Part shown: positions 34,257 through 53,633 of the stretch, piece by piece
Numbering within the stretch: the first letter of the stretch is position 1
How the letters are laid out: each line of letters begins with the position of its first letter
IMG/VR virus record: IMGVR_UViG_3300025418_000011
From: a virus
Length of the DNA stretch: 64,000 nucleotides
Reading direction: 5' to 3' (one strand)
The notes under the pieces: model-generated
The model's input: the letters and a program-made list of their open reading frames with translations, nothing else
Told to the model about the DNA's origin: nothing
The model's database searches: none
Program-made: the position numbers and the translations under genes

Positions 34257-35834
34257 TTACGCAGGAGCATACCCGTTATACCAGCCACTATATATTTCGA
34301 TAGGACTACGACCGTCGTTTGGATTAGATGGCAGTAAGCAGCAAGTGGGGCCTGGGCATCGTTTATCTCCGCGGTATCCAACCACCCAAACATAAATATC
34401 CCTTGTTACTCCGAGAACGCAAACAGATATAGGTAACCAACAGCCACTAAGAACAGATGACAACTTATCTCCTAGCTTAAAGTCTGCTTTTAGTTGATAG
34501 TGAGGAGGAGTATGCGTAGCACCTGCCGCGCTTGGTACTCGCAGAACATCAACACTCCAAGGTAACCCGTGAGTCTGTACGTCGCTATCAAATAGAATTT
34601 CTGGTACCTCTATATTACCATCTAATATAAGCTGGCATTGCCCTTTATTCCCAGAGGAGGACAGTTTTACGTTTCCTTGTGCCATCCCTGATGTGGTAAC
34701 TGTTCCAAATACTTTGTAAGCTTCACAAAAGTTAGTCACAAGATCCAGTTTTAAATCCACCGAACAATTTTCTTCTTGTTGTTGAGCGTAACTAGCAGAA
34801 GATATAGAAGCTGTTGGGCCTGTGGAGCTCGTTGGACCTGTTATGGCTTTTGGTTTAACCAGGAAAGTGGATCCCGAGAAAGCCGAGGGAGGGTTGAATA
34901 TAGGATTTATTTTAATTGCTTCACAGGCATTAACATGAAGGTCTAAATCATAGCTTATTGTGCATGGAGGACCACCGCCTCCGCCTGTAGGCCCTGTTGT
35001 TGCCGTGAGTGACTGTTTGTTGTAAATATTAAACGCAGATCCCGCCATATTAGGGGGAAAATTAATATTTCCTTTTTCGACAAAAATAACCTCGCAAGCC
35101 TGAGGAACGAATATATTCCCTGTAAGCTGGGCTCCGCAGTCAGGAGCGCTAGAAACACTTCCGAATGTTAAACTTCCTTGCGCACTGCCTGTGAGCTTTA
35201 CATTAGAATCAATTTTAAAATTTTCACACGCAGTAACGTGAATATTTCCTCCCAATAAAATACCGCAATCAGGGGCGTTGCCAGAGCTAGTAACAGTTAT
35301 TTGCCCGTCTGCTGCCCCAGTCTGCACTATGTTTCCTTTTACCTGAACTGTTTGACAGGCGAGAGCAGCAATATTCGGAGCGTTATAAACAGGCGTTACA
35401 AGATTTACGTTTGGAAATGCAAAACTGCAGGCCCTATCCATAGGTGTGATAGGGCTGCCTAAGTCTAATAGAGGAGCGCTAAGTGCGGGTAATGCGCAGT
35501 TATCTGGCGGGGTTATTGTGCCCAATATAAGACTAGTGCCACTAGAAATATTATGTGTGAGATGCGCGCTAAGAGTTATGGTATTTCCATAGATCTGAGT
35601 TATTGTTGTATTGGGCTGAATGCCATAAGCCTCTACAATCTGACCAACACTTAATAAACTTGGGCTGTTTACAACTAAGTCTAATGCATTTGTTAATGCT
35701 AACTGAGTAACTACAACAGACTCATTAGAAATACTAAAATATCCTGGCTGATATTGCGCCGTGTATTGAGGAACTCCTAAAGTATCTGGTGAGCCTAGTA
35801 TTACACTAGATGTATTTATTTCTAATCCGGCCAT
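34257..35834 (-). CDS. Cys-rich repeat tail fibre/spike-like protein
   Basis: 525 aa; N-terminal VGQIVEAYGIQPNTTITQI module; about five repeats each bounded by C...ACE. Confidence 0.55.
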   Translation of the reverse strand: MAGLEINTSSVILGSPDTLGVPQYTAQYQPGYFSISNESVVVTQLALTNALDLVVNSPSLLSVGQIVEAYGIQPNTTITQIYGNTITLSAHLTHNISSGTSLILGTITPPDNCALPALSAPLLDLGSPITPMDRACSFAFPNVNLVTPVYNAPNIAALACQTVQVKGNIVQTGAADGQITVTSSGNAPDCGILLGGNIHVTACENFKIDSNVKLTGSAQGSLTFGSVSSAPDCGAQLTGNIFVPQACEVIFVEKGNINFPPNMAGSAFNIYNKQSLTATTGPTGGGGGPPCTISYDLDLHVNACEAIKINPIFNPPSAFSGSTFLVKPKAITGPTSSTGPTASISSASYAQQQEENCSVDLKLDLVTNFCEAYKVFGTVTTSGMAQGNVKLSSSGNKGQCQLILDGNIEVPEILFDSDVQTHGLPWSVDVLRVPSAAGATHTPPHYQLKADFKLGDKLSSVLSGCWLPISVCVLGVTRDIYVWVVGYRGDKRCPGPTCCLLPSNPNDGRSPIEIYSGWYNGYAPA

Positions 35835-38353: not shown

Positions 38354-38552
38354 TTGAAAGCTTTTTTTGCACTGCTCTTGTTATTATTATCCAGGCACTG
38401 TGATAATCTTCTTCTGATAAGAAATCTTCTGCTGTTAACTCTACCTCTATAGGCTTACCAGGGTAGGTCACTTTTTCTTTTTCTCCGCCGATTTCTTCTA
38501 GGTATGTTCCTTTTATTTTTAAAGACGGAATATAGATTTGTTTAGCTTGCAT
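38340..38552 (-). CDS. Hypothetical protein
   Basis: 70-aa ORF in the operon. Confidence 0.55.
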   Translation of the reverse strand: MQAKQIYIPSLKIKGTYLEEIGGEKEKVTYPGKPIEVELTAEDFLSEEDYHSAWIIITRAVQKKLSNGVS

Positions 38553-39030
38553 TGTTCAAATCCTCTGTGAGTAAGGATTCAAGATATGCTTTAGTCTTCT
38601 CATCTTCAAGAAGTTTTTTCATTTCAGGATATTTAGTTTCTAAAATAACCTTTTTTTCAGGTACCTCAGAAGTTTCTGGTGCGTCTGGACCCGCAATGGT
38701 ATTTACCGCACCTTTAACGGCTTTTGCTGTTAATACACTTCTAAGCACATGAGGATCTATGAGTCCTGCTAACTTTTCTTGCCCTTTAACAGGAGAGCCT
38801 ATGCTGTGCACTTCGTTAGCTGGAGTATTAAAAATGGTTTTTTCAGGGCCTAAGTTTAAATTCAACTTTCCCTGCATTTGTGGAAGCAGTGGAGCTATTC
38901 CTGGATTAGGTCTGGGTGCAATATTATCTAATATTTTACTCACACGGGAGGTTAAGAGGTTGGTTAAAAAACCTCCCTCTTTTTCCATATCGGAAAATCC
39001 TCTTTCAAATTCGCTCCAGTCTATTTTCAT
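38542..39030 (-). CDS. Putative head-associated protein (K-x-A family)
   Basis: EFERGFSDMEKEGG, QEKLAG. Confidence 0.55.
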   Translation of the reverse strand: MKIDWSEFERGFSDMEKEGGFLTNLLTSRVSKILDNIAPRPNPGIAPLLPQMQGKLNLNLGPEKTIFNTPANEVHSIGSPVKGQEKLAGLIDPHVLRSVLTAKAVKGAVNTIAGPDAPETSEVPEKKVILETKYPEMKKLLEDEKTKAYLESLLTEDLNNAS

Positions 39031-39761
39031 CCTATGTTGTAAGGTTCTAATTCTACTCTGGTAGGAATGTTAGAGATATAATCCTCAGCGTGATTTTTCT
39101 CTCTAAGCTTCTTCTTAATAACATAAGTAAGATAAGCACTACCTGCGCCTGTACCTATTAATCCTGTGGCACCTAAATCAATAACAGGGTCAACAGGCTT
39201 TTTCAAGATACCTAGGCCTTTACCAAGAAGTCTCTTTAGGCTGTGATCGCTTATTTCTACATCTTCTGCAGTATTACCTGCAGTTTTAGGAAGAATTTCA
39301 CTGATGGTCGCTTCTGCAGCCAATCCATTGCAGAATGCATCCACGTTAGGGGTTTCTAATTCACCCTGCTTAATCTTTTGAAGTGTTTGGAGATATTCTT
39401 TTTGCGCATCCTGAAGTTCACGCTGTATCTGCATCTTCTGTTGCTGAAAGTATTCTCTCCTGGCTTCGTGAAAGCCTGCCTCACCACCAAACACAGAGCG
39501 AATTGGGTTTCTGTTGAATCTGATTGCTCTTCCTATCAACCCAGGAGAAGCCTCGCCCTCTTCACTGGTTTTGTGCAAAGTATTTACAGGAATAGGAATT
39601 CTCAAGGTGTCTCCTCCACCAAGACCTTCCATTCTGCGGGTGGCCTCTTCCTGTTCTTTTGCAAGTTGTATAGCACTGAACAAGCTTCTGCCAAAAAGCT
39701 TAGAAGCAAGATAAGCCTCTTCTGGAGATAGAGGTATTTTTGTTTGGTTGTTATTATTCAT
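39027..39761 (-). CDS. Putative head-associated protein (K-x-A family, C-terminal hydrophobic segment)
   Basis: LHKTSE, LPKTAG, GATGLIGTGAGSAYLTYVI. Confidence 0.55.
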   Translation of the reverse strand: MNNNNQTKIPLSPEEAYLASKLFGRSLFSAIQLAKEQEEATRRMEGLGGGDTLRIPIPVNTLHKTSEEGEASPGLIGRAIRFNRNPIRSVFGGEAGFHEARREYFQQQKMQIQRELQDAQKEYLQTLQKIKQGELETPNVDAFCNGLAAEATISEILPKTAGNTAEDVEISDHSLKRLLGKGLGILKKPVDPVIDLGATGLIGTGAGSAYLTYVIKKKLREKNHAEDYISNIPTRVELEPYNIG

Positions 39762-40122
39762 TAGAGGTTTCCTTCTTTTTTCCGTAAATCACAAAGACTC
39801 TATAACTTCCTTGAGGAGTCCAATTATCCTTGTAGTAGCTGATCACATATTTCTCGTCGTTCAAGAGCCTGGACAGCATTTCACCATCATGCTGCTTTTC
39901 TGGGTCTAATACGATGTTGTGAAACTCATATATAGAGAGATCCATCTTTGGCTTTTTAGCCCAGCCCTTGGCCTGCTCAAAGGCATCTACTGTTTTTTGC
40001 TGATCTAGGATCTCTCCTTTTAATTCTCTCTGGATGCTGCGCTTGGGCTGAGGCCTGAAGTCAGGACTAGCTGTTCCAAAGTCAAAATGTTCTGTTGCTT
40101 TTTCTGTGTTAGTGTAGGCCAT
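39754..40122 (-). CDS. Hypothetical protein
   Basis: 122-aa ORF in the operon. Confidence 0.6.
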   Translation of the reverse strand: MAYTNTEKATEHFDFGTASPDFRPQPKRSIQRELKGEILDQQKTVDAFEQAKGWAKKPKMDLSIYEFHNIVLDPEKQHDGEMLSRLLNDEKYVISYYKDNWTPQGSYRVFVIYGKKKETSNE

Positions 40123-40480
40123 GTTCTTGTTTTAGTTTGTGGGTTAAATTTCTAATCATATGTACCTTCTGCCTCTCTCTGGCTAGGGCTTGATTTAATT
40201 CTGAAACATTATTTTCCATCTCGTCAAAAGCCATGCCGCCAGCAGCTCCTGCTGCGGCGCTTGTGTTCATGGCCCAATGAGGAAGACCTCCTGCAATACC
40301 TGCAGCAGGACGAATGAGAAAGTCATTCATTACATTAAGATCAGACGCAACCTTCATGGCTCCTTCTGCCGTATTGATATTAGCCAGGGCATGCTCGAAT
40401 TCCTCCAACGAGCTTCCGATCTTCTGAAGATCATCGGCTAATACTTCTTTTATTGTTTTTGCGTAAGATGTTAAGTTCAT
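40109..40480 (-). CDS. Putative head-associated protein (K-x-A family, Gly zipper)
   Basis: LQKIGS, AMKVAS, AAGIAGG...AAAGAAGG. Confidence 0.55.
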   Translation of the reverse strand: MNLTSYAKTIKEVLADDLQKIGSSLEEFEHALANINTAEGAMKVASDLNVMNDFLIRPAAGIAGGLPHWAMNTSAAAGAAGGMAFDEMENNVSELNQALARERQKVHMIRNLTHKLKQEHGLH

Positions 40481-40860
40481 AGTACTGTGACTGTTCCTGT
40501 ATCAGGGTCCCAACGTGTAAATTTCGAGGGACCCATCAATTTGTTTAATATTATATTTCCTAATCCAAAACCTGCCAAGCTCATAAGTACCTGGCTAGTG
40601 CCGCTCATCTTTTTCCACCTAGCCACAGCCAGAGCCAAGGCTGCCCCTGCTGTTCCGGCGAGCAAATGACTGGCTACATCTGGTGAGTTGAGCATTCTCA
40701 ATATGTGGGTCTTTTGATCCTGAGAAAGAGCATGGTCTGCTTTTATATATTTTGCAAGATCCGCAGGAAGCATTGTTTCTCCTGGACCTATCAAACTAGA
40801 GAAATCCAGCGCACCTCCTAGCTCCAACCCTTCCATGCCTGTTGAGATAGCTTCGTTCAT
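40477..40860 (-). CDS. Putative membrane-interacting protein (two hydrophobic Gly-rich helices)
   Basis: LLAGTAGAALALAVARW; LMSLAGFGLGNIIL. Confidence 0.55.
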   Translation of the reverse strand: MNEAISTGMEGLELGGALDFSSLIGPGETMLPADLAKYIKADHALSQDQKTHILRMLNSPDVASHLLAGTAGAALALAVARWKKMSGTSQVLMSLAGFGLGNIILNKLMGPSKFTRWDPDTGTVTVL

Positions 40861-41657
40861 TTTAAAGCCCCTCCTAACCCCACAAGAGCTCCACCAGCGA
40901 GCAATGGAAGTCCAACAGATCTATTGAACTCTTGCCCTGGGTTTGCCTGCATTTGCTGATTATATTCAGGGCTAAGTTTCTTTCTAAGATGATTCAAGAG
41001 CAACCCTCCAAGAATTGTTCCACCTATGGTGAGTAGAGGGTGTGAAGCCATTGCGCCCATAGCTCCTCTCACATTGTTGATTCCTCCGAACATGAGATGA
41101 GCCGCATTTTCAGGAGAGCCTAGAAGTCCGTTGAATTCTGCAGTTTTAATTTCTTCTTCTCCTCCTCTCAAGAGTGCTTCTGGATCAACTTTAGGAATGA
41201 CTTGCGATTCTTGATTTTTAATAGCCTCTAACCTCTTCATCATCTTTTTAGATGGCAGATATTTCCAGTTTCTGCCTTCACTGTGCTCTAACACAAATGT
41301 AGGATTTTCTCTGCCTGTGGCTAGGGTCATATAGATGCTGTGCGGGCTACTTCTGTGGATTTGGGCCGTGCCTCCGTGCAGTTTGTCTTTCTCAAAGTCT
41401 AATATATTTATATCTTTGAGTTTTTCAACAGGTTTGAGTTCTCCTCCGAACTCACTCAATCCAAAGCCGTAAACATGGTTACCATCAGATAGCCTCAACC
41501 CTTCAGGAGTAACCACATATTTCCAGTTCTTCTGCCCTGAGAAAGATGGAAGTATATTCTCGTTAGCCAGGTGGTCTACATAGCTATTGAAATCTCCCTT
41601 CTTCTCGTTGAGGAGGTCATTAAAGCCCAAGCTAAAAGCCGTGAGGTCTAAATCCAT
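40857..41657 (-). CDS. Putative head-associated protein (K-x-A family, Gly zipper C-terminus)
   Basis: ATG at 41657 preferred; EIKTAE, then IGGTILGGLLL and LLAGGALVGLGG. Confidence 0.55.
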   Translation of the reverse strand: MDLDLTAFSLGFNDLLNEKKGDFNSYVDHLANENILPSFSGQKNWKYVVTPEGLRLSDGNHVYGFGLSEFGGELKPVEKLKDINILDFEKDKLHGGTAQIHRSSPHSIYMTLATGRENPTFVLEHSEGRNWKYLPSKKMMKRLEAIKNQESQVIPKVDPEALLRGGEEEIKTAEFNGLLGSPENAAHLMFGGINNVRGAMGAMASHPLLTIGGTILGGLLLNHLRKKLSPEYNQQMQANPGQEFNRSVGLPLLAGGALVGLGGALK

Positions 41658-41659
41658 AT

Positions 41660-42760
41660 TTATCTGATAGAGGAAGGCATCGCGTCTCTGCTCCAACCAT
41701 AACCATAGCTAGCTAACGGGTTGCCCCCTCCCATAGCAGAGTTCATCATGCCTGGTAAGAACTTATGGCCTAGAAACCCGCCTAAAAGTAAAGGAGTCAC
41801 TGTGCCTAGAGGAAGCCCCAATTCTTTGCTGAGCATCAATGCACCTAATGCGCCTCCTGCCGTACCAGCCAGCTCGTTAGAAATTCCTGGAATCATTTGG
41901 TGTTGGTTCCAGGGCGGCTGACCATATTTGAAGTCTCCCCCATCTCCTGAGATAGACCTACCCAGTAAAGCTCCTCCTCCTAATGCACCGGCACCAACGC
42001 CAGCAACTCCTGCTCTACCTAATAGTCCGGCAGCCCCTCCTAGCGCGGCTCCTCCTAAAGCTCCTGGTAAACCTCCCAGTGCACCTATTCCACCGCCGTA
42101 GAGGGCCCCCTTGCCTGCTTTGTTCCATCTACGTGCCCAGAATCCTGGACCCATGAATCCAGGGTCTCCTGACTGTGGAGTTGCTTGAGGGGTGGAAGTT
42201 GTGGGTTCTGCTGCAGGTGTAATAGGCTCCGCAGCTGGATGCGCTGCTTCTGATGCAGGAACTCCTCCAGCCCCTTCTGAAGCACTGAAGCCAGGACGAA
42301 TCTTATTTGCCTCTTCTCCGACACCCATAAATGTATTTTTCAATCCTTGCAGCATACCCTCACCCTTTCCTGCTTCTCTCCAGGTGTCTCCTACTCCCTT
42401 GAAAACTCTACCCAAGCCCTCACCTATACCACCTAGTCCCCTGAGGAGTGAAGCTTCTCCTCCTGCGGTCTTCTCGTTGAACTCTCCTGCAATCTTCTCT
42501 AGTTCAACCTCGCTCTCTTTGAAGAATCCCTCTATGAATGCTTCGTCCTTTCCTTCTTCTAGCAAAGCCTCTTTCACGCCCTTTCTGAACTCTAGACTCT
42601 CTTCTCTCACTTGATTCAACAGAGCTGAAGTCTTCTCCAGGAACTCCATAGTCTCTTTGTTCGAGAGTATTGTATCCACTATTCCCAGCGAGGCTTCTTT
42701 GGATATTCCCTCCTGAGATAATACTTCTAACATTCCTGACTTCAGTGCTTCTGGATTCAT
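41660..42760 (-). CDS. Putative head-associated/ejection protein (multiple K-x-A, long Gly zipper)
   Basis: ISKEAS, LEKTSA, LEKIAG, NEKTAG; GGIGALGGLPGALGGAALGGAAGLLG. Confidence 0.6.
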   Translation of the reverse strand: MNPEALKSGMLEVLSQEGISKEASLGIVDTILSNKETMEFLEKTSALLNQVREESLEFRKGVKEALLEEGKDEAFIEGFFKESEVELEKIAGEFNEKTAGGEASLLRGLGGIGEGLGRVFKGVGDTWREAGKGEGMLQGLKNTFMGVGEEANKIRPGFSASEGAGGVPASEAAHPAAEPITPAAEPTTSTPQATPQSGDPGFMGPGFWARRWNKAGKGALYGGGIGALGGLPGALGGAALGGAAGLLGRAGVAGVGAGALGGGALLGRSISGDGGDFKYGQPPWNQHQMIPGISNELAGTAGGALGALMLSKELGLPLGTVTPLLLGGFLGHKFLPGMMNSAMGGGNPLASYGYGWSRDAMPSSIR

Positions 42761-43871
42761 ATTCTGGGTTTGCGCAAGATTTAGTTCTATCGATTTTATC
42801 TTTAGAATGCTTTTTTTGCAAGTCAGGATTCTTCTCTAATCCTCCGCACCCTGTTTTGTGTGTATGTAGGAAGAAATAAGCCACAGAGTATGCCATCTCA
42901 CGAGCATTTCTAACCAGCTCGGCACCATCATCAGGATTCCACTCAGTGGACAGTCTATCACTCCAATCATACACACCAGTTATGTATCCTAGATAGTTCT
43001 CAAACTCAGAGGTTCTGCTCTTCCAGGTTATATATTTGTTATCTCCAGCCATTCCCATAGAAATAGCTTTGTCTAACTTAAGTTTAGATCTCATATCCTC
43101 TTCTGACCAACCTTTATCCGCCCAGAACACCACATGAGTATGAGGATGAATCACACGGCTAGAGATAGAAGTAGCACTGCACTCATGACTGTAGAAGTAG
43201 TCAGAGATAACGCCAGAGCGCTTCAATGCCATCAACCTACCTCTGGTTTTCTTGAAGTCACCGTCCAAACTAGATATCCATTCTTCACCGTGATCTGGAA
43301 TGTGAACATCATCTTCATGAATAACAAAGGTCATAGCACGTTTACCAGACCTGAAGAGATCAGAGATAGAGAGCGAACGCTGATTCAACCACTTTGTACT
43401 ATCATTCCTAGTAGTATATGGGTTGAGAGTCTTGCTTTTGAGATTCTTACCACAAACTCCTTTCTTATATGAGAGCATACTGTTTAAGAGAGAACCAGAG
43501 CTCAACAGGCTATCACCAGTAAGAGCAACAAATGAGCACCAACGAGTAAATTGGTTCTTACGCTTCATACCCCATGCAGGATAGTAAATGATTCCATGAT
43601 TACCAGATCTACCTTCACCCTGAACTTCTTTCTCTAGTATTCTAAGTATGTTCCAACTTTCACCAGGAGTGAGATAATCCCAACCAGCAATTATAGAGCG
43701 CATATTTGTAGGGTCTACTTCAGCTCTAGAGGTGGGAGAATAGTCTAGGGGTTTGTTCATACACCTGTTCGCCCCTAAAGCCAACCATTCGTTAATTACC
43801 CTATCCCTTGGGCGGTTAGGTTTCATGTCCACCCCACACAATTGTCCGGCTAACTCTTCTTCTGAAAGCAT
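42504..43871 (-). CDS. Rolling-circle Rep-like HUH endonuclease (Rep_1/pC194-like, divergent)
   Basis: AMTFV (motif 1), YFYSHECS...IHPHTHVVFW (E + HUH motif 2; cf. RALEVT...YHPHFHVL), ENYLGYIT (motif 3 Tyr). C-terminal ~85 codons overlap 41660..42760. Confidence 0.65.
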   Translation of the reverse strand: MLSEEELAGQLCGVDMKPNRPRDRVINEWLALGANRCMNKPLDYSPTSRAEVDPTNMRSIIAGWDYLTPGESWNILRILEKEVQGEGRSGNHGIIYYPAWGMKRKNQFTRWCSFVALTGDSLLSSGSLLNSMLSYKKGVCGKNLKSKTLNPYTTRNDSTKWLNQRSLSISDLFRSGKRAMTFVIHEDDVHIPDHGEEWISSLDGDFKKTRGRLMALKRSGVISDYFYSHECSATSISSRVIHPHTHVVFWADKGWSEEDMRSKLKLDKAISMGMAGDNKYITWKSRTSEFENYLGYITGVYDWSDRLSTEWNPDDGAELVRNAREMAYSVAYFFLHTHKTGCGGLEKNPDLQKKHSKDKIDRTKSCANPEYESRSTEVRNVRSIISGGNIQRSLAGNSGYNTLEQRDYGVPGEDFSSVESSERRESRVQKGRERGFARRRKGRSIHRGILQRERG

Positions 43872-43877
43872 GGGCTC

Positions 43878-43906
43878 AAATTATCCACAGAAAGCACGGT
43901 TGTCAA
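43878..43906 (-). promoter_or_regulatory. sigma70 promoter giving a probably leaderless mRNA for the HUH gene
   Basis: TTGACA-17 nt-TAATTT; the ATG is 6 nt after the -10 box. Confidence 0.6.
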
Positions 43907-44051
43907 ATTCTCTGTACTGGAATCTTTTGGATGATGGAATGTGTAGGAGAGAGATGTTAAAAAGAGGGATCTATCTAATAGACTAGGTGGCCCTTGAAAT
44001 CCTCGCTTCCAATATAGGGGTTTATAGAGTATCCTAGTCTGCAAATACATT

Positions 44052-44413: not shown

Positions 44414-45205
44414 ATGAGCATAACCGGAAAAACATTTCAGGGAGGAAGGCAGCCAAGAAGTCATAATCCCAAGATTCCCTTCATGCGCACACTGCTGGCG
44501 GGCAAACCAATTCCCGCTTTTCCGGAAGAAGTTGATTATACCGTAGGAATGCCCAGCAATCTGGGAGTGATGATGAATGACCAACTGGGCGACTGTACCT
44601 GCGCGGCGTTCTATCACGCACTACAGGTTTGGAGTTATAATACAACAGGGCAGTTATTAACAGAAGACGACGCTGAAGTTGAAATCCTGTATGAGCGCGC
44701 TTGCGGATATATACCAGGTAATCCTGCCACAGATAACGGTGGTAATGAGCAGCAAGTTCTCACCTATCTTCTCAATGAGGGGGCACCTGTAGGGTCGGGA
44801 GACGCAGAGAGACATAAGTTGACTGCTTTTTATGAAATTCATGTTAATCACATTGACGCCATAAAATCTGCTATCAATGCATGTGGTGTGTTGTATATGG
44901 GTATAGACGTTCCTCAATATATTACTCCTCCAGAAGGCAACCCTCCCGCTGTTTGGACACTCGAACCTTCAGCAGACAATACTATAGTAGGAGGGCATGC
45001 CATTATTGCTGCCGGATATAATAATGTTGGATTAAAAGTTATTTCATGGGGGCAATATTACACAATGACTTGGGATTTCTTTAGTAAGTTTACAGATGAG
45101 GCATATGCTCTTGTGGACGTTGAATGGGTTAAATCTAACAATTCTACTCCTGCGGGTTTAACCCTAGACCAGTTAGAGCAGGCAATGGCAGAGCTCAGGA
45201 ATTAA
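44414..45205 (+). CDS. Papain-like cysteine peptidase (C1 family)
   Basis: NDQLGDCTCAA (Gln, Cys), VGGHAIIAAGY (His), ISWG. Confidence 0.85.
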   Translation: MSITGKTFQGGRQPRSHNPKIPFMRTLLAGKPIPAFPEEVDYTVGMPSNLGVMMNDQLGDCTCAAFYHALQVWSYNTTGQLLTEDDAEVEILYERACGYIPGNPATDNGGNEQQVLTYLLNEGAPVGSGDAERHKLTAFYEIHVNHIDAIKSAINACGVLYMGIDVPQYITPPEGNPPAVWTLEPSADNTIVGGHAIIAAGYNNVGLKVISWGQYYTMTWDFFSKFTDEAYALVDVEWVKSNNSTPAGLTLDQLEQAMAELRN

Positions 45206-45268: not shown

Positions 45269-48256
45269 ATGAAAGAGTACAAATTCGTGTTGGACCACGG
45301 AAAACTCAAAAAAGTCCCAAGATCAACTAAAGTAGATTATAAGATTCCGAGCACCACGGATTTCTTCTCTCCTGTTACAAATCTCATACCTAGCCTGAGC
45401 AGCGTTTCCGGTGCTCGTGTGCTTATCGGAGACAAGAGTTCGCTGCAGGCCATGACTCTGGTTAACAGAGAAGCCCCGTTGGTTCAATCTAGCGAAAGTC
45501 AGGAACACAAGAGCTTTGTTGAACAGTTTGGACACAAGCTTGTTAGTATACGCAGCAATATTTCAGGAAAAGTCACTTCAGTAGACAACGACAAGATTGT
45601 TATAAAAGACAACTCTGGTAAAGAGCACGAACATCCGCTTTATCAAAATTATTTAGTAGGTAGAGAAAGTTATATGCACCATACACCTACTGTTAAAGTA
45701 GGTGATTCTGTTAAACCTGAAAGTTTATTAGCTACCTCTAACTACTCAGACAGTCATGGCAATATGGCCTTGGGTATGAATCTCAAAACGGCCGTGATGC
45801 CGTATAGATCGTATAACTTTGAGGACGCACTTGTTATTAGCGAAGATGCTGCAAAAAAATTAGAAGCAGAGCAACTTGTTCCAGTTAGATTGGAGATAGC
45901 TAGAGGTATAGAAACAGAAAAAGATAAATATGTTTCTCTGTTTCCTAATAAATACTTTAATGACCAGTTAGGTAAATTAGATAGCTCTGGTGTTGTGAAA
46001 AGGGGAAGTGTAGTAAAGCACGGAGATCCATTGATTCTTGCCTATCAGCCTAAAACATTAAAGTCATTAGAGATTCAATTAGGTAAACTTTCCAGAGCAT
46101 TAAAAAACGCGTATTCAGATATCACAGAGACCTGGACTTACGAGCACGATGGTGAAGTTGTGGATGTTAGCAACACAGGTAAATTAATCACAGTAACTAT
46201 AAAGACTCGTAGGCCTATGGCCACAGCTGACAAACTATCTAATCCTTTCGGAGCAAAGGGGGTGGTTAGAATTGTTAGCAATAGTGAAATGCCTCAAGGA
46301 GAAGACGGTAAACCTATAGATGTATTGCTCAATTCGATGAGTGTTACTAGCCGTGTTGCTCCGGGGCTCATCACGACCATGGCAATGGGCAAGGTTGCTC
46401 AAAAATTAGGACATAGTCTAAAAATCACACCATTCTCTGATGGTAGCGTTGTTGAAAAAACAATAAAAGAATTAGAGAAACACGGCATAAAAGACACAGA
46501 GAAATTATACGATCCTGTTTCTGGTAAACACATAGAAGTATTCACCGGACCATCTTACTACACTCGACTCCATCATATAGCTGAAGATAAAATTTCGTCC
46601 AGATCGTCAGGAACTACCTACGATATCAATATGCAACCCTCTAAGGCGGGCACAGAAGAAAAGAGTAAGCGTTTGGGAAATCTTGCAACCACGGTGGCAC
46701 TTTCTAACGACGCTAAAGAAGTTTTAAAAGATGTTGCCGTTGTTAGAGGAACAAAAAACGACGAGTTCTGGAATGCAATAAAATTAGGTTATGCTCCACC
46801 TCCACCAAAAGTTCCATTTATATTTAACAAGTTTATCTCTCACCTAGAAGGTTCTGGTGTGCACGTTAATCAAGAGGGAACTAAGTTTAATATTCTTCCC
46901 CAAACAGATAAGGATATAGAAAAAATTAGTCACGGTGAAATTCATGAACCTCTAACCTACAAATTAAAAAATGGTGAATTAGTCGCTGAGAATAACGGAC
47001 TTTTTGACCCTGTAAATGTAGGTATTTATGGAGATAACTATAATCATATCAATCTTTCATTTAAAGTCCCCAATCCTGTTAGTGAAGAACCACTTCGTAA
47101 ACTTTTAGGAGTTACTAAAAATAAGTTTGAAGAGATGCTTGCTGATGGATCGTTAGAGAAAGCTTTAAATGGTATAAAGCTAGACGATAAAATAAACGAG
47201 CTGAAGGGTTACATTAAGTCTAACAGAAAAACAGAGAGAGACTCAGCTGTTAAAGTTTTGTCTTTCTTAACCATGTTGAAGAGGCAGGATTTACATCCTA
47301 AAGATTTATTAATTTCTAAAATTCCGGTTATCCCTGCCCAATATAGACCTATTACTGCTCAAGGTAATCAAATCATGAGCGCTGATGTTAACGAGCTATA
47401 TAAAGATTTGATGCTGGTTAATAAATCTTTTAATGGTATAGACGAGCATACTCCAGTGGAATTAAAAGGAGAGGCTCGCAAAAAATTATACGAGGGCGTT
47501 AGAGCTGTGTATGGTTTAGGCGAACCAATCAGCACCAGGAGCAAAGAAAAAAACTTTAAAGGTTTGTTAGCCACAACACTGGGCACACAAGGAGGTAGTG
47601 CAAAAAGCTCAATGTTCCAGGCAAAGGTTGTGAATAAACCAATAGACCTCGTGGGTAGAGGGGTACTTGTGCCGGATGGAAATCTTCAATTGAACGAAGC
47701 GGCAATTCCTCAGGCTATTTTGTGGAATATATACACTCCTTTTGTTATTCGGAGATTAGTAAGGCAGGGAGTACCAGCCACAAAGGCAAGAGACTATGTT
47801 AAGTCTAAACACCCTTTAGCCTCCTTGGCTTTACAAGAAGAACTCAAGGATCGCCCAGGAATTGTTACCAGAGACCCGCAGTTATCCAAATATAACTTTC
47901 AAGGATTCTACCTTAGGCCTAACCCGGATCCTAAAGACTTCTCTATAAAGCTCAACCCCTTGGTGTTTAAAGGTTATGGTGCTGATTCTGACGGAGACCA
48001 ATTGAATGTGCAAGTTCCGGCAGGAGACGCAGCTAAAGAAGAAGTTAAAGAAAAGTTATTCCCTGAGAAAAACTTAATTTATCATAGAACTTTTAGCCCT
48101 ATATATACCCCATCAAATGAGGCGGCTGTGGGATTATTTGCGGCTAGCTACGAGAATAAACATAATAAACCTATGCACTACTCTAGCGAAGCCCAGGTAG
48201 TTGCCGATTTTATGGCCGGAAAGCTAGACATAGGAGATAATATTGACTTATCTTAA
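45269..48256 (+). CDS. rpoB-rpoC: RNA polymerase beta C-terminal / beta' N-terminal fusion (catalytic DxDGD)
   Basis: beta: YNFEDA, DKLSNPFGAKGVV, DVLLN, YYTRLHHIAEDKISSR, KRLGN. beta': GLFD, HINL, IPVIPAQYRP, DVNELY, IDLVGRGV, RDPQL, YGADSDGDQ. Confidence 0.95.
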   Translation: MKEYKFVLDHGKLKKVPRSTKVDYKIPSTTDFFSPVTNLIPSLSSVSGARVLIGDKSSLQAMTLVNREAPLVQSSESQEHKSFVEQFGHKLVSIRSNISGKVTSVDNDKIVIKDNSGKEHEHPLYQNYLVGRESYMHHTPTVKVGDSVKPESLLATSNYSDSHGNMALGMNLKTAVMPYRSYNFEDALVISEDAAKKLEAEQLVPVRLEIARGIETEKDKYVSLFPNKYFNDQLGKLDSSGVVKRGSVVKHGDPLILAYQPKTLKSLEIQLGKLSRALKNAYSDITETWTYEHDGEVVDVSNTGKLITVTIKTRRPMATADKLSNPFGAKGVVRIVSNSEMPQGEDGKPIDVLLNSMSVTSRVAPGLITTMAMGKVAQKLGHSLKITPFSDGSVVEKTIKELEKHGIKDTEKLYDPVSGKHIEVFTGPSYYTRLHHIAEDKISSRSSGTTYDINMQPSKAGTEEKSKRLGNLATTVALSNDAKEVLKDVAVVRGTKNDEFWNAIKLGYAPPPPKVPFIFNKFISHLEGSGVHVNQEGTKFNILPQTDKDIEKISHGEIHEPLTYKLKNGELVAENNGLFDPVNVGIYGDNYNHINLSFKVPNPVSEEPLRKLLGVTKNKFEEMLADGSLEKALNGIKLDDKINELKGYIKSNRKTERDSAVKVLSFLTMLKRQDLHPKDLLISKIPVIPAQYRPITAQGNQIMSADVNELYKDLMLVNKSFNGIDEHTPVELKGEARKKLYEGVRAVYGLGEPISTRSKEKNFKGLLATTLGTQGGSAKSSMFQAKVVNKPIDLVGRGVLVPDGNLQLNEAAIPQAILWNIYTPFVIRRLVRQGVPATKARDYVKSKHPLASLALQEELKDRPGIVTRDPQLSKYNFQGFYLRPNPDPKDFSIKLNPLVFKGYGADSDGDQLNVQVPAGDAAKEEVKEKLFPEKNLIYHRTFSPIYTPSNEAAVGLFAASYENKHNKPMHYSSEAQVVADFMAGKLDIGDNIDLS

Positions 48257-48286: not shown

Positions 48287-48487
48287 ATGATAGATGAAGA
48301 AATTTGGTTTAAGCTAACTGATGAAGAAAAGTTGGCGGAGCTAGAACACTATCTAGATGAACTCCGCAGGCTTGATTCCGGAGAGCATGAACTAAGGGGT
48401 ACCCATCAACAGGGTAAAATTAAGACTTTAAAAAAAGAAATAAAGAAGAAAATAAATAAAATAATAGACCTGGAGTATATCAAATGA
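48287..48487 (+). CDS. Hypothetical protein
   Basis: 66-aa ORF. Confidence 0.55.
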   Translation: MIDEEIWFKLTDEEKLAELEHYLDELRRLDSGEHELRGTHQQGKIKTLKKEIKKKINKIIDLEYIK

Positions 48488-49080
48488 ATATTCAATCCCT
48501 TATAGAATCTTATGATGGCCTAGTTAAAGAGGCGTTCATCCCAAATCCCCAGGCGCAACAAGATCAGGGACAGTTGCAACAAGCTCAGCAACAGCTTATG
48601 GGTATGATCTCTCAACTCCCTCCCGAACTTCAGCAGCAGATTTCCCCGGCGTTGCAGCAACTTCAACAGCTTCCGCCCGACCAGCAGCTCCAGGCCATGC
48701 AACAGCTTGCCCAGCAGATCCAGCAGGTAGGTCAACAACAAGCGCAGCCTCAGCAACCACAGGAAGGCCAACCGGCAGAACAAGCCGAGCAGGAACCTCA
48801 GCAAGCCGCAGGAAATGTTAATGCGGAGAACAGCCTCGATAACACAAAGGTAACACTTTCTGTCAGAGAACTCTTAGATCTTTCGAGTGGCGGCAAGGCT
48901 ACCCATAGCTTGCTTAAGGTTAAACAACTTGCGGACACCCATAATAAAAAAATGGAAGCTATGCAGAAGCAGCAGCAGCAAGCAGAAGATCAGGCTCAGC
49001 AAGAGCAAGCCCAGCAATCCGCTATGGGGCAAGGTGGTATTTATACAGCTCCCATGGGATCAGGAAAACCACAACAATGA
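48484..49080 (+). CDS. Gln-rich putative head-associated protein (K-x-A family)
   Basis: SYDGLVKEAF, then Q/P-rich repeats. Confidence 0.6.
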   Translation: MNIQSLIESYDGLVKEAFIPNPQAQQDQGQLQQAQQQLMGMISQLPPELQQQISPALQQLQQLPPDQQLQAMQQLAQQIQQVGQQQAQPQQPQEGQPAEQAEQEPQQAAGNVNAENSLDNTKVTLSVRELLDLSSGGKATHSLLKVKQLADTHNKKMEAMQKQQQQAEDQAQQEQAQQSAMGQGGIYTAPMGSGKPQQ

Positions 49081-49404: not shown

Positions 49405-51267
49405 ATGCCTGTTACCACGGTAGGGAGAATACTTTTAAAGGAGTATACTCCTAGACACTTACACCACATGATAGATGGGCAGATTCTCGATAAAAAGGGA
49501 ATCTCTAACCTTTTTAGTGAGCTGGTAAAGCAGGAGCCGGAGAATTATAGTAAAATTGCTTCAGATCTTACTAGGCTTGGATTTGAAGTAGCCACTAGGC
49601 AAGGAACATCCATCACTCTTAAAGATCTTGTTTCTCCTGTTAATACTAAAGAAATTTATGATAAGTTCGATGAGTTCCAGGAAAAGGTAAAAAGCTCTAA
49701 AGACCCAGAGCACATCAAGAATCAAAGAATTTTTGATAAATATAATTCTTTGATGGAAGAAACCAACAAAACTATTCTTGATGAGGGACTTAAGAATAAT
49801 AAGTCTTTGGCTAAGATTATTTTAGCAGGGTCTAGAGGATCTCCTGCACAATATAGATCAACTATCGCAACTCAGGGAATTGTAGTGGATGCGGAAGGTA
49901 ACCCTAAGATGGATATCCCCGTTAAGAGCTCTTTTGCCGAAGGATTATCTCTTCCAGAATATTTAGTCACATCTTTTGGTACTCGTTCTGGTGAGGTTGT
50001 TAAAAAGATTGGTGTGGCTCAGGGTGGATACAGCTCTAAGCAGTTCTCCAGAGCCCTGATGAATCTACAAGTTACAGAACATGATTGCGGAACCACAAGC
50101 GGAATAAGTGTACCTACCTCAGATAAAGATTCTGTTGGTGCTTATCTTGCACAACCCGCAGGAGAGTATAAGCGTAATAATGAAGTTACTGCTAAGATGT
50201 TAAATGACTTGAAAAGTCATGGAATTGATAAAATTTTGATACGCTCGCCCATGACTTGCAAGGCAAGTAACAACAGTCACTTTGGAGCCGTTTGCCAATT
50301 ATGTGTAGGCAGAAGAGAAAAGGGGCTGGCGGCCCCTGATAGTTATATTGGTTTAGTGGCGGGTACCGCAGTCAGCGAACCCTTGACCGAGTACGCGATG
50401 AAACTGAGACACGGAGGAGGAGCCGCCACATCTTTAGGTGGGGTCACAGGGTTCAAGATGATTAATCAGCTAGCCAATATTCCAAAGACATTTTTAAACA
50501 AGGCTCCACTCGCTCAAGAAGATGGAATTGTTACAAATGTTCAACATGCTGCCGCCGGTGGATATTTTATAAAAATAAATGATACAGAGTATTATATAGG
50601 TGTAGGGCAAGAGCCTTATGTTAAGGTTGGAGATAAAGTTGAACAAGGGGATGTGCTAAGTTCGGGACTAGTTGATCCTAGCGAGGTTGTAAGATACAAA
50701 GGTATAGGTGAGGGAAGAAGCTATTATGCTCAAGCAATGAAAAAGGCTTTTGATGAGGGTAACCTGGGAGTAAATAGAAGAAACTTTGAATTGATCGCCA
50801 GGTCCGCCATAGATCACGTAAAAATAAATGATAATGACGGGCTTGGTGACTTTCTACCCGATCAAATTGTTTCATACGCCGCACTTGAGAAGAATTATGT
50901 ACCTAGACCTAACAGTAAAATTTTAAGATCAGACTTAGCCTACGGTAAATATTTGGAAAAGCCTGCTTTACATTATACAATAGGTACAAGAATATCTTCG
51001 TCGGTTATTAAAAATTTAACAGAGCATGGAATAGAATCTGTTGAGGTTAATGACGATCCCCCCAATTTTGAACCTCACATGGTTAGACTATTAGACGTAC
51101 CTGAGCACGTAGATGACTTTATGCATGTGCTCTATAGTACAAATCTAGCAAAGCGTTTTAGTAATGCCGTGAACGAAGGAGCTTCTTCTGACATTAGAGG
51201 ACCTAGCCCTATTCCTGGCATTGCTCATGGTGTAGGATTTGGCGAACACACAAATTTCAAAGAGTAG
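49405..51267 (+). CDS. rpoC: RNA polymerase beta' subunit, C-terminal part
   Basis: GSRGS, SFAEGL..PEY (bridge helix), EHDCGT, RSPMTC, CQLCVG (Zn), SEPLTEYAMKLRHGGG (trigger loop). Confidence 0.95.
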   Translation: MPVTTVGRILLKEYTPRHLHHMIDGQILDKKGISNLFSELVKQEPENYSKIASDLTRLGFEVATRQGTSITLKDLVSPVNTKEIYDKFDEFQEKVKSSKDPEHIKNQRIFDKYNSLMEETNKTILDEGLKNNKSLAKIILAGSRGSPAQYRSTIATQGIVVDAEGNPKMDIPVKSSFAEGLSLPEYLVTSFGTRSGEVVKKIGVAQGGYSSKQFSRALMNLQVTEHDCGTTSGISVPTSDKDSVGAYLAQPAGEYKRNNEVTAKMLNDLKSHGIDKILIRSPMTCKASNNSHFGAVCQLCVGRREKGLAAPDSYIGLVAGTAVSEPLTEYAMKLRHGGGAATSLGGVTGFKMINQLANIPKTFLNKAPLAQEDGIVTNVQHAAAGGYFIKINDTEYYIGVGQEPYVKVGDKVEQGDVLSSGLVDPSEVVRYKGIGEGRSYYAQAMKKAFDEGNLGVNRRNFELIARSAIDHVKINDNDGLGDFLPDQIVSYAALEKNYVPRPNSKILRSDLAYGKYLEKPALHYTIGTRISSSVIKNLTEHGIESVEVNDDPPNFEPHMVRLLDVPEHVDDFMHVLYSTNLAKRFSNAVNEGASSDIRGPSPIPGIAHGVGFGEHTNFKE

Positions 51268-51341: not shown

Positions 51342-53633
51342 ATGGCAAATTTTTCTAAAACAAAAAAGGCGGGCGACGATTCATTAGAGCAGTCATTTTT
51401 TCAGCTTGCCTATAACAAGCTTCAGGACAGTTTGAAGAATCTTCTTCCGTTTTTAATAGGCTTTGAGATCGTAAAAAAGAACGAGGACAACACCAAGGCT
51501 CTTGGTGTTTTTGGATTTCGCTCTCATGGAGGACAAATCCTTTATGTACCTGCTTTCTTCGTGGACGGTAAAGTAAAGAATCTCGATCTTCTTTATTCTA
51601 AAAATAACGAGCAGTTTTATCCTCTGGATGAAGACTTTGCTGAGTTATTCTTAAAAGACGAAACCACTAATTTGGGTGCCGTAGCAAAAGAACCAAGACA
51701 GAAGGTTCTACAGGATATGACTCAAGGCGACTATCGCCAGATGACTATTCCTCCTCGTACAGGTAAGTACACCATAGCCTCTTGCATAGATTACGTAAAG
51801 GATTCTGATAATAAAACAAAGAGAGCATTCACAGAGCTTTTAGAGAAGGACGCAGACTTTTGCGAGTCTGTACTACGCTTCTATCCTATAGAGAAAGTTG
51901 CAGAAGCTGTTGTAGAAACAGAAGATGGTGACAAATATAGAGAGGGAAATGATGTTAAGGTGGTGATGAAAGACCAAAAACCTGAGGTCTTGAAGCTTGA
52001 TGAAAAGCAAAGAAAAGACGTTATGACTCAGGGATTTATAATAATTGACAAACGTCCTGTAGATAAAAAATCTAAGTTTGGCGCTGTTGATTATGTAAAG
52101 ACATTCCAAAATCCTGTAGAGTCTGGCTTTTATCCATATATCACAACAACAGGAAATATTAACTACGGTTTAATCCTTGTTCGTCCTAAGCAGCTTCAAC
52201 AAGATTTTGCCACGGATGATGCGATAATTATCAACCTTGATGCTGAAGACAAAGGAACCGCTTATGTGGCAGACACTAAGATGGTTTTTGTTAAAGATCA
52301 ACTCAAAGTCGCAGACTATTCTTTAGTCCACAAGATGATGGTGGATCCCGCTGAAGCTCGTCCTAGCTATACTTCGGTTTATGTTCTTATTAACGAGCAA
52401 ATGCAGGCTACTCAGCCATTTAGAATTAATGCTAACTTTAAAGATGCGCAAGGGATCAGAAGAATTAGTGTAGAGCCGTTTTCTATTCACGAGGATCCTA
52501 AGACCGGTTATGAGTATCAAGATCATAATCATGGAATGACAGATAGGCCCGGCAGTGTTCATAATCTTCCTCGTGGAAACTATTATAGACATCCCAGAAA
52601 AGCCAAAGAGATATTGCTCGTAATGACCAAGAAACCTAATGGTGGGCTTGATTATCATGGGCACACGGTATATGTACCTTCAGGTTATAAGCTTTTAGAG
52701 GTGAAGTTCCACCCAATGAATGAATATGGTTATTGTGGTGTTGAAGCTCCATATGTTTCTTTAGATGCCTCAAATAAAGATAAAAGTGAAGCAGATAAAG
52801 CTCAAGCCGAGAGAGCCAAAGCTCACGAAAAGTATTTAGAGAATAGGCCGGGCGGTGTATGGGCATTAAATTCGTTTCTTACTAGGAATAATATTTTCCC
52901 GATGACTGTAAGAACAAACGGCAGTGAGTACTTTAGCGATATTGCCGGAGCGAAGAAAAAGTATGACAATCCAATGAAGGCCAAGATTGCCATGGTTACT
53001 GAAGTTGGATTAGACTTCAAGCAGGCTTGTGAAGTTATTGATAATCTCACTCCCTCCAAGGCAATTTCAGGACATGTAAAAATTGCTTATACAGGAGACT
53101 ATTATCCCATCCCTTACGAGGAAGCGCCGTACACCAACCAGGTGGGACAGCCGACATATGTTGGAGTTGGTCAAGAGAGTCGACTCCCTGCAGACATTCG
53201 CTACACAGGAGATCCTACAGCCTTAGGTTTAACGGTGATGCCGGAAGTTGAAGGAGTGGACCCGTCCAGCCCTAAGAACAAGATTGATCCTAAATATGTA
53301 AACCAGGCCGCCCAGATGGCTCAGAACGGACAGAAAGAAATATTCGACGTTCAGACCATGGCCACATTGGCTAAATATGTAGGTGTCAGCGACAAGATCA
53401 CAGAATACATTCCGTCGTTAATAGAAGGTATGGATAGACTGGGCAGAATTATTTTCCTTCTTAACTGGGATACTGATAAATTTGTGGAGATGTACGGAAG
53501 AAATGACCTCCCCCAGCTCTCAGAGTTGGTCACTAATGTATTTAAAAATCTTGGAGAATTAGTCATCTTCCTTAAGCGTAAATCCCCAGAATTAAACATC
53601 AACATGGGTAAGGAAGATGCCCTCGAATTCTAA
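51342..53633 (+). CDS. Large putative head morphogenesis protein (K-x-A family)
   Basis: 763 aa; TKKAG, IEKVAE, HVKIAY; first gene of the head operon. No family recognised. Confidence 0.55.
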   Translation: MANFSKTKKAGDDSLEQSFFQLAYNKLQDSLKNLLPFLIGFEIVKKNEDNTKALGVFGFRSHGGQILYVPAFFVDGKVKNLDLLYSKNNEQFYPLDEDFAELFLKDETTNLGAVAKEPRQKVLQDMTQGDYRQMTIPPRTGKYTIASCIDYVKDSDNKTKRAFTELLEKDADFCESVLRFYPIEKVAEAVVETEDGDKYREGNDVKVVMKDQKPEVLKLDEKQRKDVMTQGFIIIDKRPVDKKSKFGAVDYVKTFQNPVESGFYPYITTTGNINYGLILVRPKQLQQDFATDDAIIINLDAEDKGTAYVADTKMVFVKDQLKVADYSLVHKMMVDPAEARPSYTSVYVLINEQMQATQPFRINANFKDAQGIRRISVEPFSIHEDPKTGYEYQDHNHGMTDRPGSVHNLPRGNYYRHPRKAKEILLVMTKKPNGGLDYHGHTVYVPSGYKLLEVKFHPMNEYGYCGVEAPYVSLDASNKDKSEADKAQAERAKAHEKYLENRPGGVWALNSFLTRNNIFPMTVRTNGSEYFSDIAGAKKKYDNPMKAKIAMVTEVGLDFKQACEVIDNLTPSKAISGHVKIAYTGDYYPIPYEEAPYTNQVGQPTYVGVGQESRLPADIRYTGDPTALGLTVMPEVEGVDPSSPKNKIDPKYVNQAAQMAQNGQKEIFDVQTMATLAKYVGVSDKITEYIPSLIEGMDRLGRIIFLLNWDTDKFVEMYGRNDLPQLSELVTNVFKNLGELVIFLKRKSPELNINMGKEDALEF

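Follow-up and report, generated by a model that had tools for sequence, protein, structure and literature searches.

HUH initiators are textbook enzymes of plasmids, single-stranded DNA viruses and transposons. They also occur in tailed double-stranded DNA phages, where the initiator of P2, gpA, is cis-acting and has its origin inside its own gene; to our knowledge, the small P2 group comprises the only tailed phages that use an HUH enzyme. A literature search found no HUH enzyme described in jumbo phages or in large phages with their own RNA polymerase. Here, we describe such a gene in a window of 64 kb (the whole stretch of DNA that was analysed), which belongs to a 182-kb phage genome carrying its own PolA-like and DnaB-like genes. 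A preliminary description of this window had suggested a rolling-circle Rep-like HUH endonuclease, apparently inserted into a structural operon. Our preferred reading, which we hold with somewhat better than even confidence, is that the product of this ORF is an HUH endonuclease of the Rep type, single-tyrosine and catalytically intact, whose family is new and highly divergent, and that the gene is a core gene with a selected overlap. The features of the locus are collected in Table 1.

Table 1. Features of the HUH locus, in coordinates of the window.
Feature	Position	Strand	Remarks
HUH-endonuclease gene	42504..43871	-	455 aa; from the ORF list, homologues, AF2 model and fold matches
N-terminal helical domain (about aa 20-159)	43395..43814	-	family-specific; pLDDT >90 over most of its length; invariant G101-x-K103
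Predicted HUH nuclease domain (about aa 160-350)	42822..43394	-	fold matches, invariant residues, hhalign to pC194 Rep
Overlap	42504..42760	-	last 85 HUH codons, in a frame one base ahead of that used by the next gene over its first 85 codons
Gly/Ala-rich partner gene	41660..42760	-	366 aa; sister-phage orthologue 54% identical, N-terminus included
A7 run (CAA AAA AAG)	42811..42817	-	57 nt ahead of the partner's ATG; unsupported as a slippage site
Promoter-like site	43878..43906	-	TTGACA 43906-43901, 17-nt spacer, TAATTT 43883-43878, 6 nt, ATG 43871
8-bp inverted repeat	43980-43987 and 44033-44040	.	between the divergent genes; probably without significance

Sequence motifs and predicted fold

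The HUH protein contains an MTFV strand (residues 180-183), the motif HPHTHVV (residues 242-248, with HPHTH at nt 43134-43148) and the sequence Y293-L-G-Y296-I. The codons of E230 and Y296 are at 43182-43184 and 42984-42986, all on the minus strand. The order of these motifs had been likened to that of Rep_1/pC194 and the protein called an HUH enzyme, and this call is now backed by the fold, the invariant residues and weak profile links. The spacing given for the glutamate, E-x9, was wrong, the actual arrangement being E230-x11-HPHTH. E230, the PHTH sequence at 243-246 and Y296 are all unchanged across 12 syntenic homologues. In the wider family of 47 sequences, E230, H244 and H246 are invariant and Y296 is near-invariant (at least 90%); the family has one conserved catalytic tyrosine position, and a second that is near-conserved.

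Searches with the HUH protein as a single query gave no match in Pfam, PHROG or PDB sequences, and none by tblastn against GenBank phages. No Rep family matched the window protein directly, and a search of its own genome was likewise empty even at E <= 10. The family profile returned only low-complexity noise from the PDB sequences, and searches for related loci with P0004, P0005 or the wide alignment as query found none. The members of the family nevertheless include some with weak matches to two Pfam families that the window protein itself does not match. PF23343 (REP_ORF2-G2P) is matched weakly by 15 of the 47, below its curated cut-off of 27.8 bits, with no match in the whole genome. PF01446 (Rep_1) is matched weakly by 8 of the 47, in the region of the glutamate and HUH motifs, the relatives reaching only about 16 bits against a cut-off of 33.2, and the whole genome has no match to it at E <= 10. 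Comparison with pC194 Rep by hhalign gave an E-value of 0.0017, but with a probability of 15% and over 47 columns. It pairs HPHTHVV with NPHFHVL, and E230 with the glutamate of KLEITY, which we take to be the catalytic Glu142 of pC194 RepA. In an hmmsearch among 17 reference ORFs, pC194 Rep ranked first (E 0.002-0.006).

The AF2 prediction made from 4 sequences was unusable (pLDDT 35), while that made from 47 sequences had a pLDDT of 79 and a pTM of 0.74, with residues 20-365 being confident. In this model H244-T-H246 lies within a strand (240-251), the middle threonine being polar, as compared with a hydrophobic residue in the His-hydrophobic-His motif, and Y296 is placed in a helix (288-298) C-terminal to the HUH motif. 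VIA-align against 48,161 chains gave HUH nucleases at all of ranks 1-6, covering model residues 160-350: SIRV1 ORF119 (Z 7.6), Helitron (6.8), B19 NS1 (6.4 and 6.3), AAV5 Rep (6.3) and MVM NS1 (6.1). None of these values reaches 8, and scores of this size are also given by common arrangements, so that the matches are supportive but not conclusive alone. Foldseek against BFVD gave matches with E-values of 8e-6 to 1e-3, the named ones being HRPV-1 protein 1 and microvirus replication initiators, followed by CRESS Rep (E 4e-3). The Foldseek list for the PDB consists of weak matches, yet is enriched in HUH enzymes. The structure comparison suggested in the preliminary description supports an HUH fold. 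The model is predicted to have the His-x-His metal motif, the C-terminal tyrosine helix and the Rep-type α/β fold by which the HUH superfamily is recognised, and we regard the family as having distant links with Rep_1 (pC194), with G2P and with initiators of the microvirus type.

Position in the genome and in related phages

The HUH gene is present as a single copy per genome. It is found at the same site and in the same orientation in 11/11 related phage records with enough flank, this site being the first gene of a leftward operon, divergent from the β-C/β'-N RNA polymerase gene. It is a core gene, inherited vertically in single copy within a clade of ~180-kb uncultured phages, whose records span about 75-200 kb and carry a split multisubunit RNA polymerase. 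No HUH homologue occurs in Salmonella phage Arash, the closest cultured relative by its polymerase (32% identity). The PolA-like and DnaB-like genes are about 90 kb from the HUH gene, which weakens the case for a replication role.

It had been proposed that the gene is a selfish HUH element or a captured replicon, and that relatives might show an empty site between the orthologues of the genes at 41660 and 44052. No empty site was found, the gene being present in every relative with usable flank. The selfish-insertion reading fails because the gene is single-copy and occupies the same position in all relatives with flank; as a syntenic core gene, it instead favours what had been offered as the fallback, namely a resident or domesticated nickase. 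Assignment to a mobile HUH class (IS91, IS200/IS605, Helitron-like or homing-type) was rejected, there being no variable location, empty site or multiple copies. It is worth adding that the statement that Rep HUH enzymes are absent from normal large-phage replication was too strong, given P2 gpA.

Downstream partner and fused forms

The Gly/Ala-rich partner proteins and the neighbouring genes have no match in Pfam, PHROG, the atlas or GenBank phages. The hydropathy of the partner proteins is no more than borderline for membrane helices. Lys-x-Ala is mildly enriched in the 366-aa protein (5 against 2.1 expected) and is absent, as conserved sites, from the HUH protein. In L014, P0029 and P0036 the HUH gene and its partner form one in-frame ORF of about 1100 aa. 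These fused forms do not make up a single clade, and the fused P0036 is 87% identical to the split P0009 up to residue 424. A search for longer homologues found no fused form near the window lineage, which is weak evidence.

Overlap with the downstream gene

The HUH frame had been reported to run 257 nt into the downstream gene. This extension is real and far beyond chance: in synonymous shuffles with genome-wide codon usage 0/20000 stayed open, about 9 stops being expected. Local shuffles using the region's own codons are more demanding, and give a probability of finding no stops of 0.04 for the window, falling to <0.0002 in the relatives (nine loci). In nine relatives the HUH frame extends, without a stop, over 85-170 codons of the downstream gene, which is in the +1 frame at 10/10 split loci. 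Third-position T is depleted in 9/9 overlaps, and the third frame of the same stretches carries 3-15 stops. The downstream start (MNPEAL/MNKQAL) is conserved, and the ORF lengths agree between independent assemblies. In distant relatives the start of the downstream gene was set at the first possible start codon. Every relative with usable flank has either an HUH frame that is open far into the next gene or a fusion, with the exception of L016, in which the overlap is just 44 nt. L016 has almost no tail, and the tail is therefore not strictly required. Elsewhere in the window, ORF 48484-49080 also has an open run of 97 codons in the same relative frame.

The tail encoded by the overlap is predicted to be disordered (pLDDT about 34), is Arg-rich, and has a pI of 11.2. 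Most substitutions in the overlap are silent when read in the downstream frame but change the amino acid when read in that of the tail, and their pattern reveals no amino-acid constraint on the tail. The tail is disordered and mostly basic; its sequence is free and its openness is selected. The two genes would therefore form an overlapping (dual-coding) pair, in which, as judged from the sequences, openness of the second frame is under selection in independent lineages.

Upstream region

The promoter-like site TTGACA-17-TAATTT is present upstream of the HUH start as previously claimed. Its TAATTT agrees with TATAAT at only 3/6 positions, and for this reason a consensus scanner made no call. 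TTGAC[AT] is also found about 29-30 nt before the ATG in L002, L007 and L013, and, if small deviations are allowed, near that distance in L009 and L016. This spacing implies a putative leaderless or near-leaderless mRNA; since no gene in the 64-kb window has a Shine-Dalgarno sequence, the leaderless reading is drawn from the promoter geometry only.

The 8-bp inverted repeat noted earlier does exist, with AGACTAGG at 43980 and its complement at 44033, but it does not exceed chance, and it is not kept in the sister phage L002. The frequency of the word AGACTAGG in the window is that expected by chance, and the intergenic DNA folds no better than shuffled sequences (z = +0.9). No replication origin or nick site was found in the intergenic folds, the repeats or a scan for CTTGAT. 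No CTTGAT site is conserved across the loci; where the word occurs, it reflects which codons are used in a Lys-rich block. The genome has no repeated words dispersed along it, its most frequent k-mers stemming from one collagen-like gene and from tRNAs.

Alternative explanations

Of the alternatives, the least credible is the recent arrival of a selfish element (IS91/Helitron-like, homing-like or a captured plasmid replicon) between a putative structural operon and the polymerase gene, and we give it almost no weight. HUH enzymes are indeed known to drive such elements, and between the sister phages the HUH gene (49% identity) is far more diverged than the polymerase genes (88-93%). Against this stand the single copy per genome, the identical position and orientation in the related records, the absence at the locus of terminal repeats or hairpins above chance, an unremarkable composition, and the fusion of the gene to its neighbour in three lineages. 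It is also very improbable that the protein is a domesticated and catalytically dead HUH fold, whose sole use is as a module of the Gly-rich partner, for DNA binding or for structure. Such a module would fit the fusion to a non-enzymatic partner and the distance from the replication genes; the metal ligands and the tyrosine are, however, invariant across lineages sharing only about 20% identity, which favours retained catalysis.

Two further explanations concern the overlap. It could have arisen from composition or reflect start codons that were called wrongly, with a tail that is unmade or unneeded. The lack of amino-acid constraint, the nearly tailless L016, the similar open run in ORF 48484-49080 and the way in which starts were set in distant relatives all point in this direction, whereas the local shuffles at nine loci, the stops in the third frame, the conserved downstream start and the agreement between independent assemblies point away from it, and we consider it improbable. 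Somewhat less improbable, though still unlikely, is recoding, by which the split forms, too, would yield the joined HUH-partner protein, through ribosomal frameshifting (+1 or -2) or through slippage of the polymerase. The constant +1 frame of the partner and the alternation of fused and split forms among close relatives would be explained in this way, and in the window CAA AAA AAG sits where both frames are open. However, L002 has no A-run, and those of L010, L011 and L013 fall outside the dual-open stretch; no slippery heptamer or A-run in the dual-open stretch is shared across the loci. The stop-codon contexts of the HUH frame vary and permit no re-pairing, the HUH stop has no consistent position relative to the partner's conserved motif, and one shift site cannot account for 85-170 open codons.

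Proposed function

For an active HUH endonuclease, E230, H244 and H246 would hold a divalent metal, and Y296 would cut one strand at a specific DNA site and remain joined to the 5' phosphate. The predicted chemistry is thus probably a site-specific single-stranded DNA nick with a covalent tyrosine link. As to its role, the leading candidate, at a little under an even chance, is a nick in the DNA of the phage itself, for initiation or for processing; a DNA-end or entry factor working with the Gly-rich partners is possible but clearly less likely, and a host-directed or anti-defence nuclease is doubtful.

Translation would never end at the gene boundary except in L016, continuing into either the overlap tail or an in-frame fusion. 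By means of the long C-terminal extension the enzyme, once folded, may stay tethered, either to the ribosome in cis or to the partner. More specifically, but with a low probability in our estimation, a Gly-rich protein of the virion or of ejection might have the nickase tethered to it, in some lineages through the in-frame fusion and in others through the tail or occasional recoding, so that the nickase acts as a relaxase-like DNA pilot or anchor in a large tailed phage, or the tail might be a cis-holding device on the ribosome. In the tethered reading, the nickase would join covalently to a phage DNA end or nick.

If our preferred reading is correct, a new and very divergent HUH family has become fixed as a core gene in a group of related large phages that encode an RNA polymerase of their own, and, should the enzyme nick phage DNA, it would point to a step so far unrecognised in replication, in the processing of genome ends or in DNA delivery. 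Across deep divergence, 85-170 codons are kept open over another gene, and in close relatives this arrangement flips to a fusion. The HUH overlap and fusion together provide an unusually clean natural case in which to ask why translation should have to continue past a gene boundary. HUH enzymes with new specificities are, moreover, useful as DNA-protein coupling tags (PMC7826260).

Comparison with known systems

The Rep_1 proteins (pC194 RepA, pUB110 RepU; PF01446) share with the window protein the order of a hydrophobic strand, a glutamate, 12-13 residues, H-x-H with hydrophobic residues, and a tyrosine. The window protein differs in having roughly double the length, including an additional N-terminal domain of some 140 aa, and in lacking E-x3-Y, its Y296 being followed instead by an invariant E310. 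No CTTGATA-type origin was found near the window gene, which lies in a 182-kb phage genome and not in a small plasmid.

The initiators of single-stranded DNA phages and small viruses (microvirus gpA-like, inovirus/plectrovirus G2P and HRPV-1 protein 1) are the best predicted-structure matches. There is no sequence match to phiX174 gpA or M13 gpII, and the window genome, by contrast, is that of a large tailed phage with PolA-like and DnaB-like genes. Among solved structures, SIRV1 ORF119 and the parvovirus and AAV Rep domains are the top matches over the entire nuclease domain (Z 7.6 to 6.1), with middling Z values and identities of 8-17%; they lack the N-terminal domain and the overlapping tail of the window protein. 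P2 gpA provides the precedent for an HUH nickase as the resident initiator of a tailed phage, in a genome of 33 kb and with no such overlap or fusion.

A new family of predicted HUH nucleases

Searched alone, the HUH protein has no match in Pfam, PHROGs, PDB sequences or GenBank phages. A word-indexed search gave three close homologues (95% and 48-49% identity); 47 family proteins came out of 1.84 billion representatives in a full profile search. Across the 47-row alignment E230, H244 and H246 never vary, and G101, K103, S228, S232, S235, P243, Y296, E310 and N320 are near-invariant. PF23343 (REP_ORF2-G2P) is matched by 15 members and PF01446 (Rep_1) by eight, all below the curated cut-offs; neither profile matches the window genome even at E <= 10.

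The AlphaFold2 model from this alignment (pLDDT 79, pTM 0.74) is confident for residues 20-365 and disordered for 368-455. When the model was compared exhaustively with 48,161 structure chains, HUH nucleases took all of ranks 1 to 6, matching model residues 160-350 with Z 7.6 to 6.1, and circovirus, nanovirus and bocavirus Reps are found below them. Foldseek matches among predicted viral structures have E 8e-6 to 1e-3, those with names being HRPV-1 protein 1 and microvirus replication initiators, and CRESS Rep comes next (E 4e-3). The fold matches, the invariant residues and the weak Rep_1 and G2P profile matches thus bear out the HUH assignment. From model and alignment we conclude that residues 160-350 form a predicted HUH nuclease domain with an intact predicted active site, beside an extra conserved N-terminal domain, and that the protein represents a new family, distantly tied to Rep_1 and G2P.

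Genomic setting

The window corresponds to the minus strand of G000:C1:98539-162538, part of an IMG/VR virus record of 182,120 bp with an estimated completeness of 93%. Genes encoding a split multisubunit RNA polymerase lie around the HUH gene; the nearest cultured relative of this polymerase is that of Salmonella phage Arash (32% identity, 98% query coverage). Elsewhere in the genome, a 901-aa ORF has a weak, below cut-off match to family-A DNA polymerase and a 480-aa ORF a DnaB-like helicase match; no family-B polymerase was found in the genome.

Coordinates of the features discussed (window positions, unless marked G000:C1 for the whole record)
Feature	Position	Strand	Remarks
HUH gene	42504-43871	-	455 aa
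Partner gene	41660-42760	-	366 aa, Gly/Ala-rich
Genes after the partner	38542-41696	-	
Inverted repeat, 8 bp	43980-43987 and 44033-44040		
Polymerase ORF	45269-48256		Rpb2 domain 6, Rpb1 domains 1 and 2
Polymerase ORF	49405-51267		Rpb1 domains 3 and 5
Replication module	G000:C1 28895-29317 and 31610-32122		PolA-like and DnaB-like matches
Peptidase-like gene	44414-45205	+	263 aa, phrog_19005, weak match
Divergent gene	34257-35834	-	36% identity to sister phage
Divergent gene	53617-54585	+	38% identity to sister phage
ORF with long alternative frame	48484-49080	+	198 aa
Collagen-like repeat gene, word cluster	G000:C1 1700-4100		GGACCTACTGG-type words

With the polymerase gene as query, 13 related records were retrieved from IMG/VR (67-92% identity). 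Every one with an upstream flank (L005-L011, L013-L016), as well as the metagenome loci L003 and L004, has one ORF matching the family profile, just upstream of the polymerase gene and on the opposite strand, followed as in the window by a string of small Gly-rich genes. The window's record and four relatives were searched whole, and each of these five carries the gene once; no homologue was detectable in Arash. The preliminary description was right in recognising an HUH enzyme and wrong in favouring a selfish insertion: the conserved position and single copy show that this is a core gene. Between the window phage and its sister (L002) the polymerase genes are 88-93% identical, compared to only 49% for the HUH gene and 54% for its partner, which implies either rapid evolution of the HUH gene or its exchange as an allele; the catalytic residues are fixed despite this divergence.

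The variable spot of the neighbourhood is instead the position of the peptidase-like gene, which has no counterpart in the sister phage between a 103-aa gene and the polymerase gene, where other small ORFs are found. The two divergent genes in the table, with neighbours at 76-93% identity, are further fast-evolving or exchanged genes. Separately, GGACCTACTGG and its relatives are the most over-represented words of the genome (about 16 copies, one strand), clustering in one collagen-like repeat gene at the start of the record, while one copy is found at its very end, at 182058; the record is probably broken within this repeat.

Start site and upstream DNA

The sequence features first noted are all present, with small corrections; for example, the glutamate is 11 residues ahead of HPHTHVV, not 9. 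As for the proposed promoter, TTGAC[AT] recurs about 29-30 nt ahead of the start codon in L002, L007 and L013, and in L009 with an alternative start, the L016 version being TTGAGT. This recurrence supports a promoter that places the mRNA start at or next to the ATG. The TAATTT -10 element is poor (3/6), and was not called by a consensus scanner. No Shine-Dalgarno-like sequence precedes any of 34 gene starts (window 28000-64000), where the upstream regions are A/T-rich, so its absence at the HUH gene is uninformative; this suggests SD-independent initiation in the host. The inverted repeat exists but does not exceed chance; in the sister phage it is not conserved, and its region folds no better than shuffles.

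Overlap and fusion with the partner gene

The HUH frame does run 257 nt into the partner, as first described, and the partner's N-terminus is clearly real, with 54% identity kept from its first residues. Nine loci have overlaps of 257-512 nt, L016 alone being short (44 nt), and in every case the downstream gene occupies the +1 frame. For a stop to arise in the HUH frame, a codon ending in T must be followed by AA, AG or GA. Within the window overlap 35 codons start with AA, AG or GA, and T precedes only the real stop, compared to 10 of 51 such codons in the rest of the gene. None of 20000 synonymous shuffles using genome-wide codon usage stays open. A shuffle that exchanges codons only between identical residues inside the overlap still gives P(no stop) of 0.04 to <0.0002 across the nine loci; over these stretches the third frame carries 3-15 stops. 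L002 and L003 differ at 28 overlap positions, giving 13 synonymous and 10 non-synonymous codons in the downstream frame and 2 and 20 in the HUH frame; the partner sequence is thus constrained, and the tail for openness only. The tails are Arg/Ser/Gly-rich and mostly basic (pI 10-12 in 6/9). The open tail is under selection.

Read in the corresponding alternative frame, which takes the third base of each codon with the first two of the following one, the 198-aa ORF in the table stays stop-free for 97 codons, the longest such run among 47 window ORFs. A further overlapping frame or the composition of its Gln-rich repeats may explain this.

The partner overlaps the next gene by 37 nt. The genes after it overlap each other by only 4-14 nt through ATGA-type junctions, as is usual in translational coupling. 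The partner proteins belong to no recognisable family and are only borderline in membrane character; two operon genes, of 279 and 127 aa, have a pair of Gly-rich hydrophobic segments at the end.

In L014 the HUH gene and partner form one 1093-aa ORF, an architecture also found in the homologues P0029 (1134 aa) and P0036 (1149 aa), each with a C-terminal part that is homologous to the partner in the window. These three do not group together in a quick maximum-likelihood tree, which needs three changes; fusion is recurrent. Up to residue 424, P0036 (fused) and P0009 (split) align gap-free at 87% identity, and the similarity stops exactly at the partner's own Met in P0036. Split forms of the same length occur in independent assemblies and are therefore not assembly errors. 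It follows that a small indel toggles between fusion and overlap, and common to both states is that no translation stop lies near the gene boundary. The feature is unusual, and well supported.

Mechanism and role

A recoding model, in which a frame change joins the HUH domain to the downstream protein, lacks a conserved shift site. The extension may be a tether that holds the folded enzyme at the ribosome or at the partner, which would explain an open frame free of sequence constraint. The predicted enzyme would nick a specific single-stranded site and bind its 5' end covalently. A role linked to entry or the virion would fit the operon partners, the fusion to one of them, the rapid evolution of the gene and the presence in the virion of the homologous Arash polymerase, whose subunits are among the most abundant proteins by virion mass spectrometry (PMC10585845). 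Replication-type initiation is consistent with all characterised relatives. Against this, some 90 kb separate the gene from those for the PolA-like and DnaB-like proteins, and an origin was not detected.

When searched against 17 ORFs from pC194, phiX174 and M13, both family profiles matched the pC194 Rep ORF best. In a low-probability hhalign alignment its 'KLE' Glu, which we take to be the catalytic Glu142, and its NPHFH motif align with E230 and HPHTH of the HUH protein.
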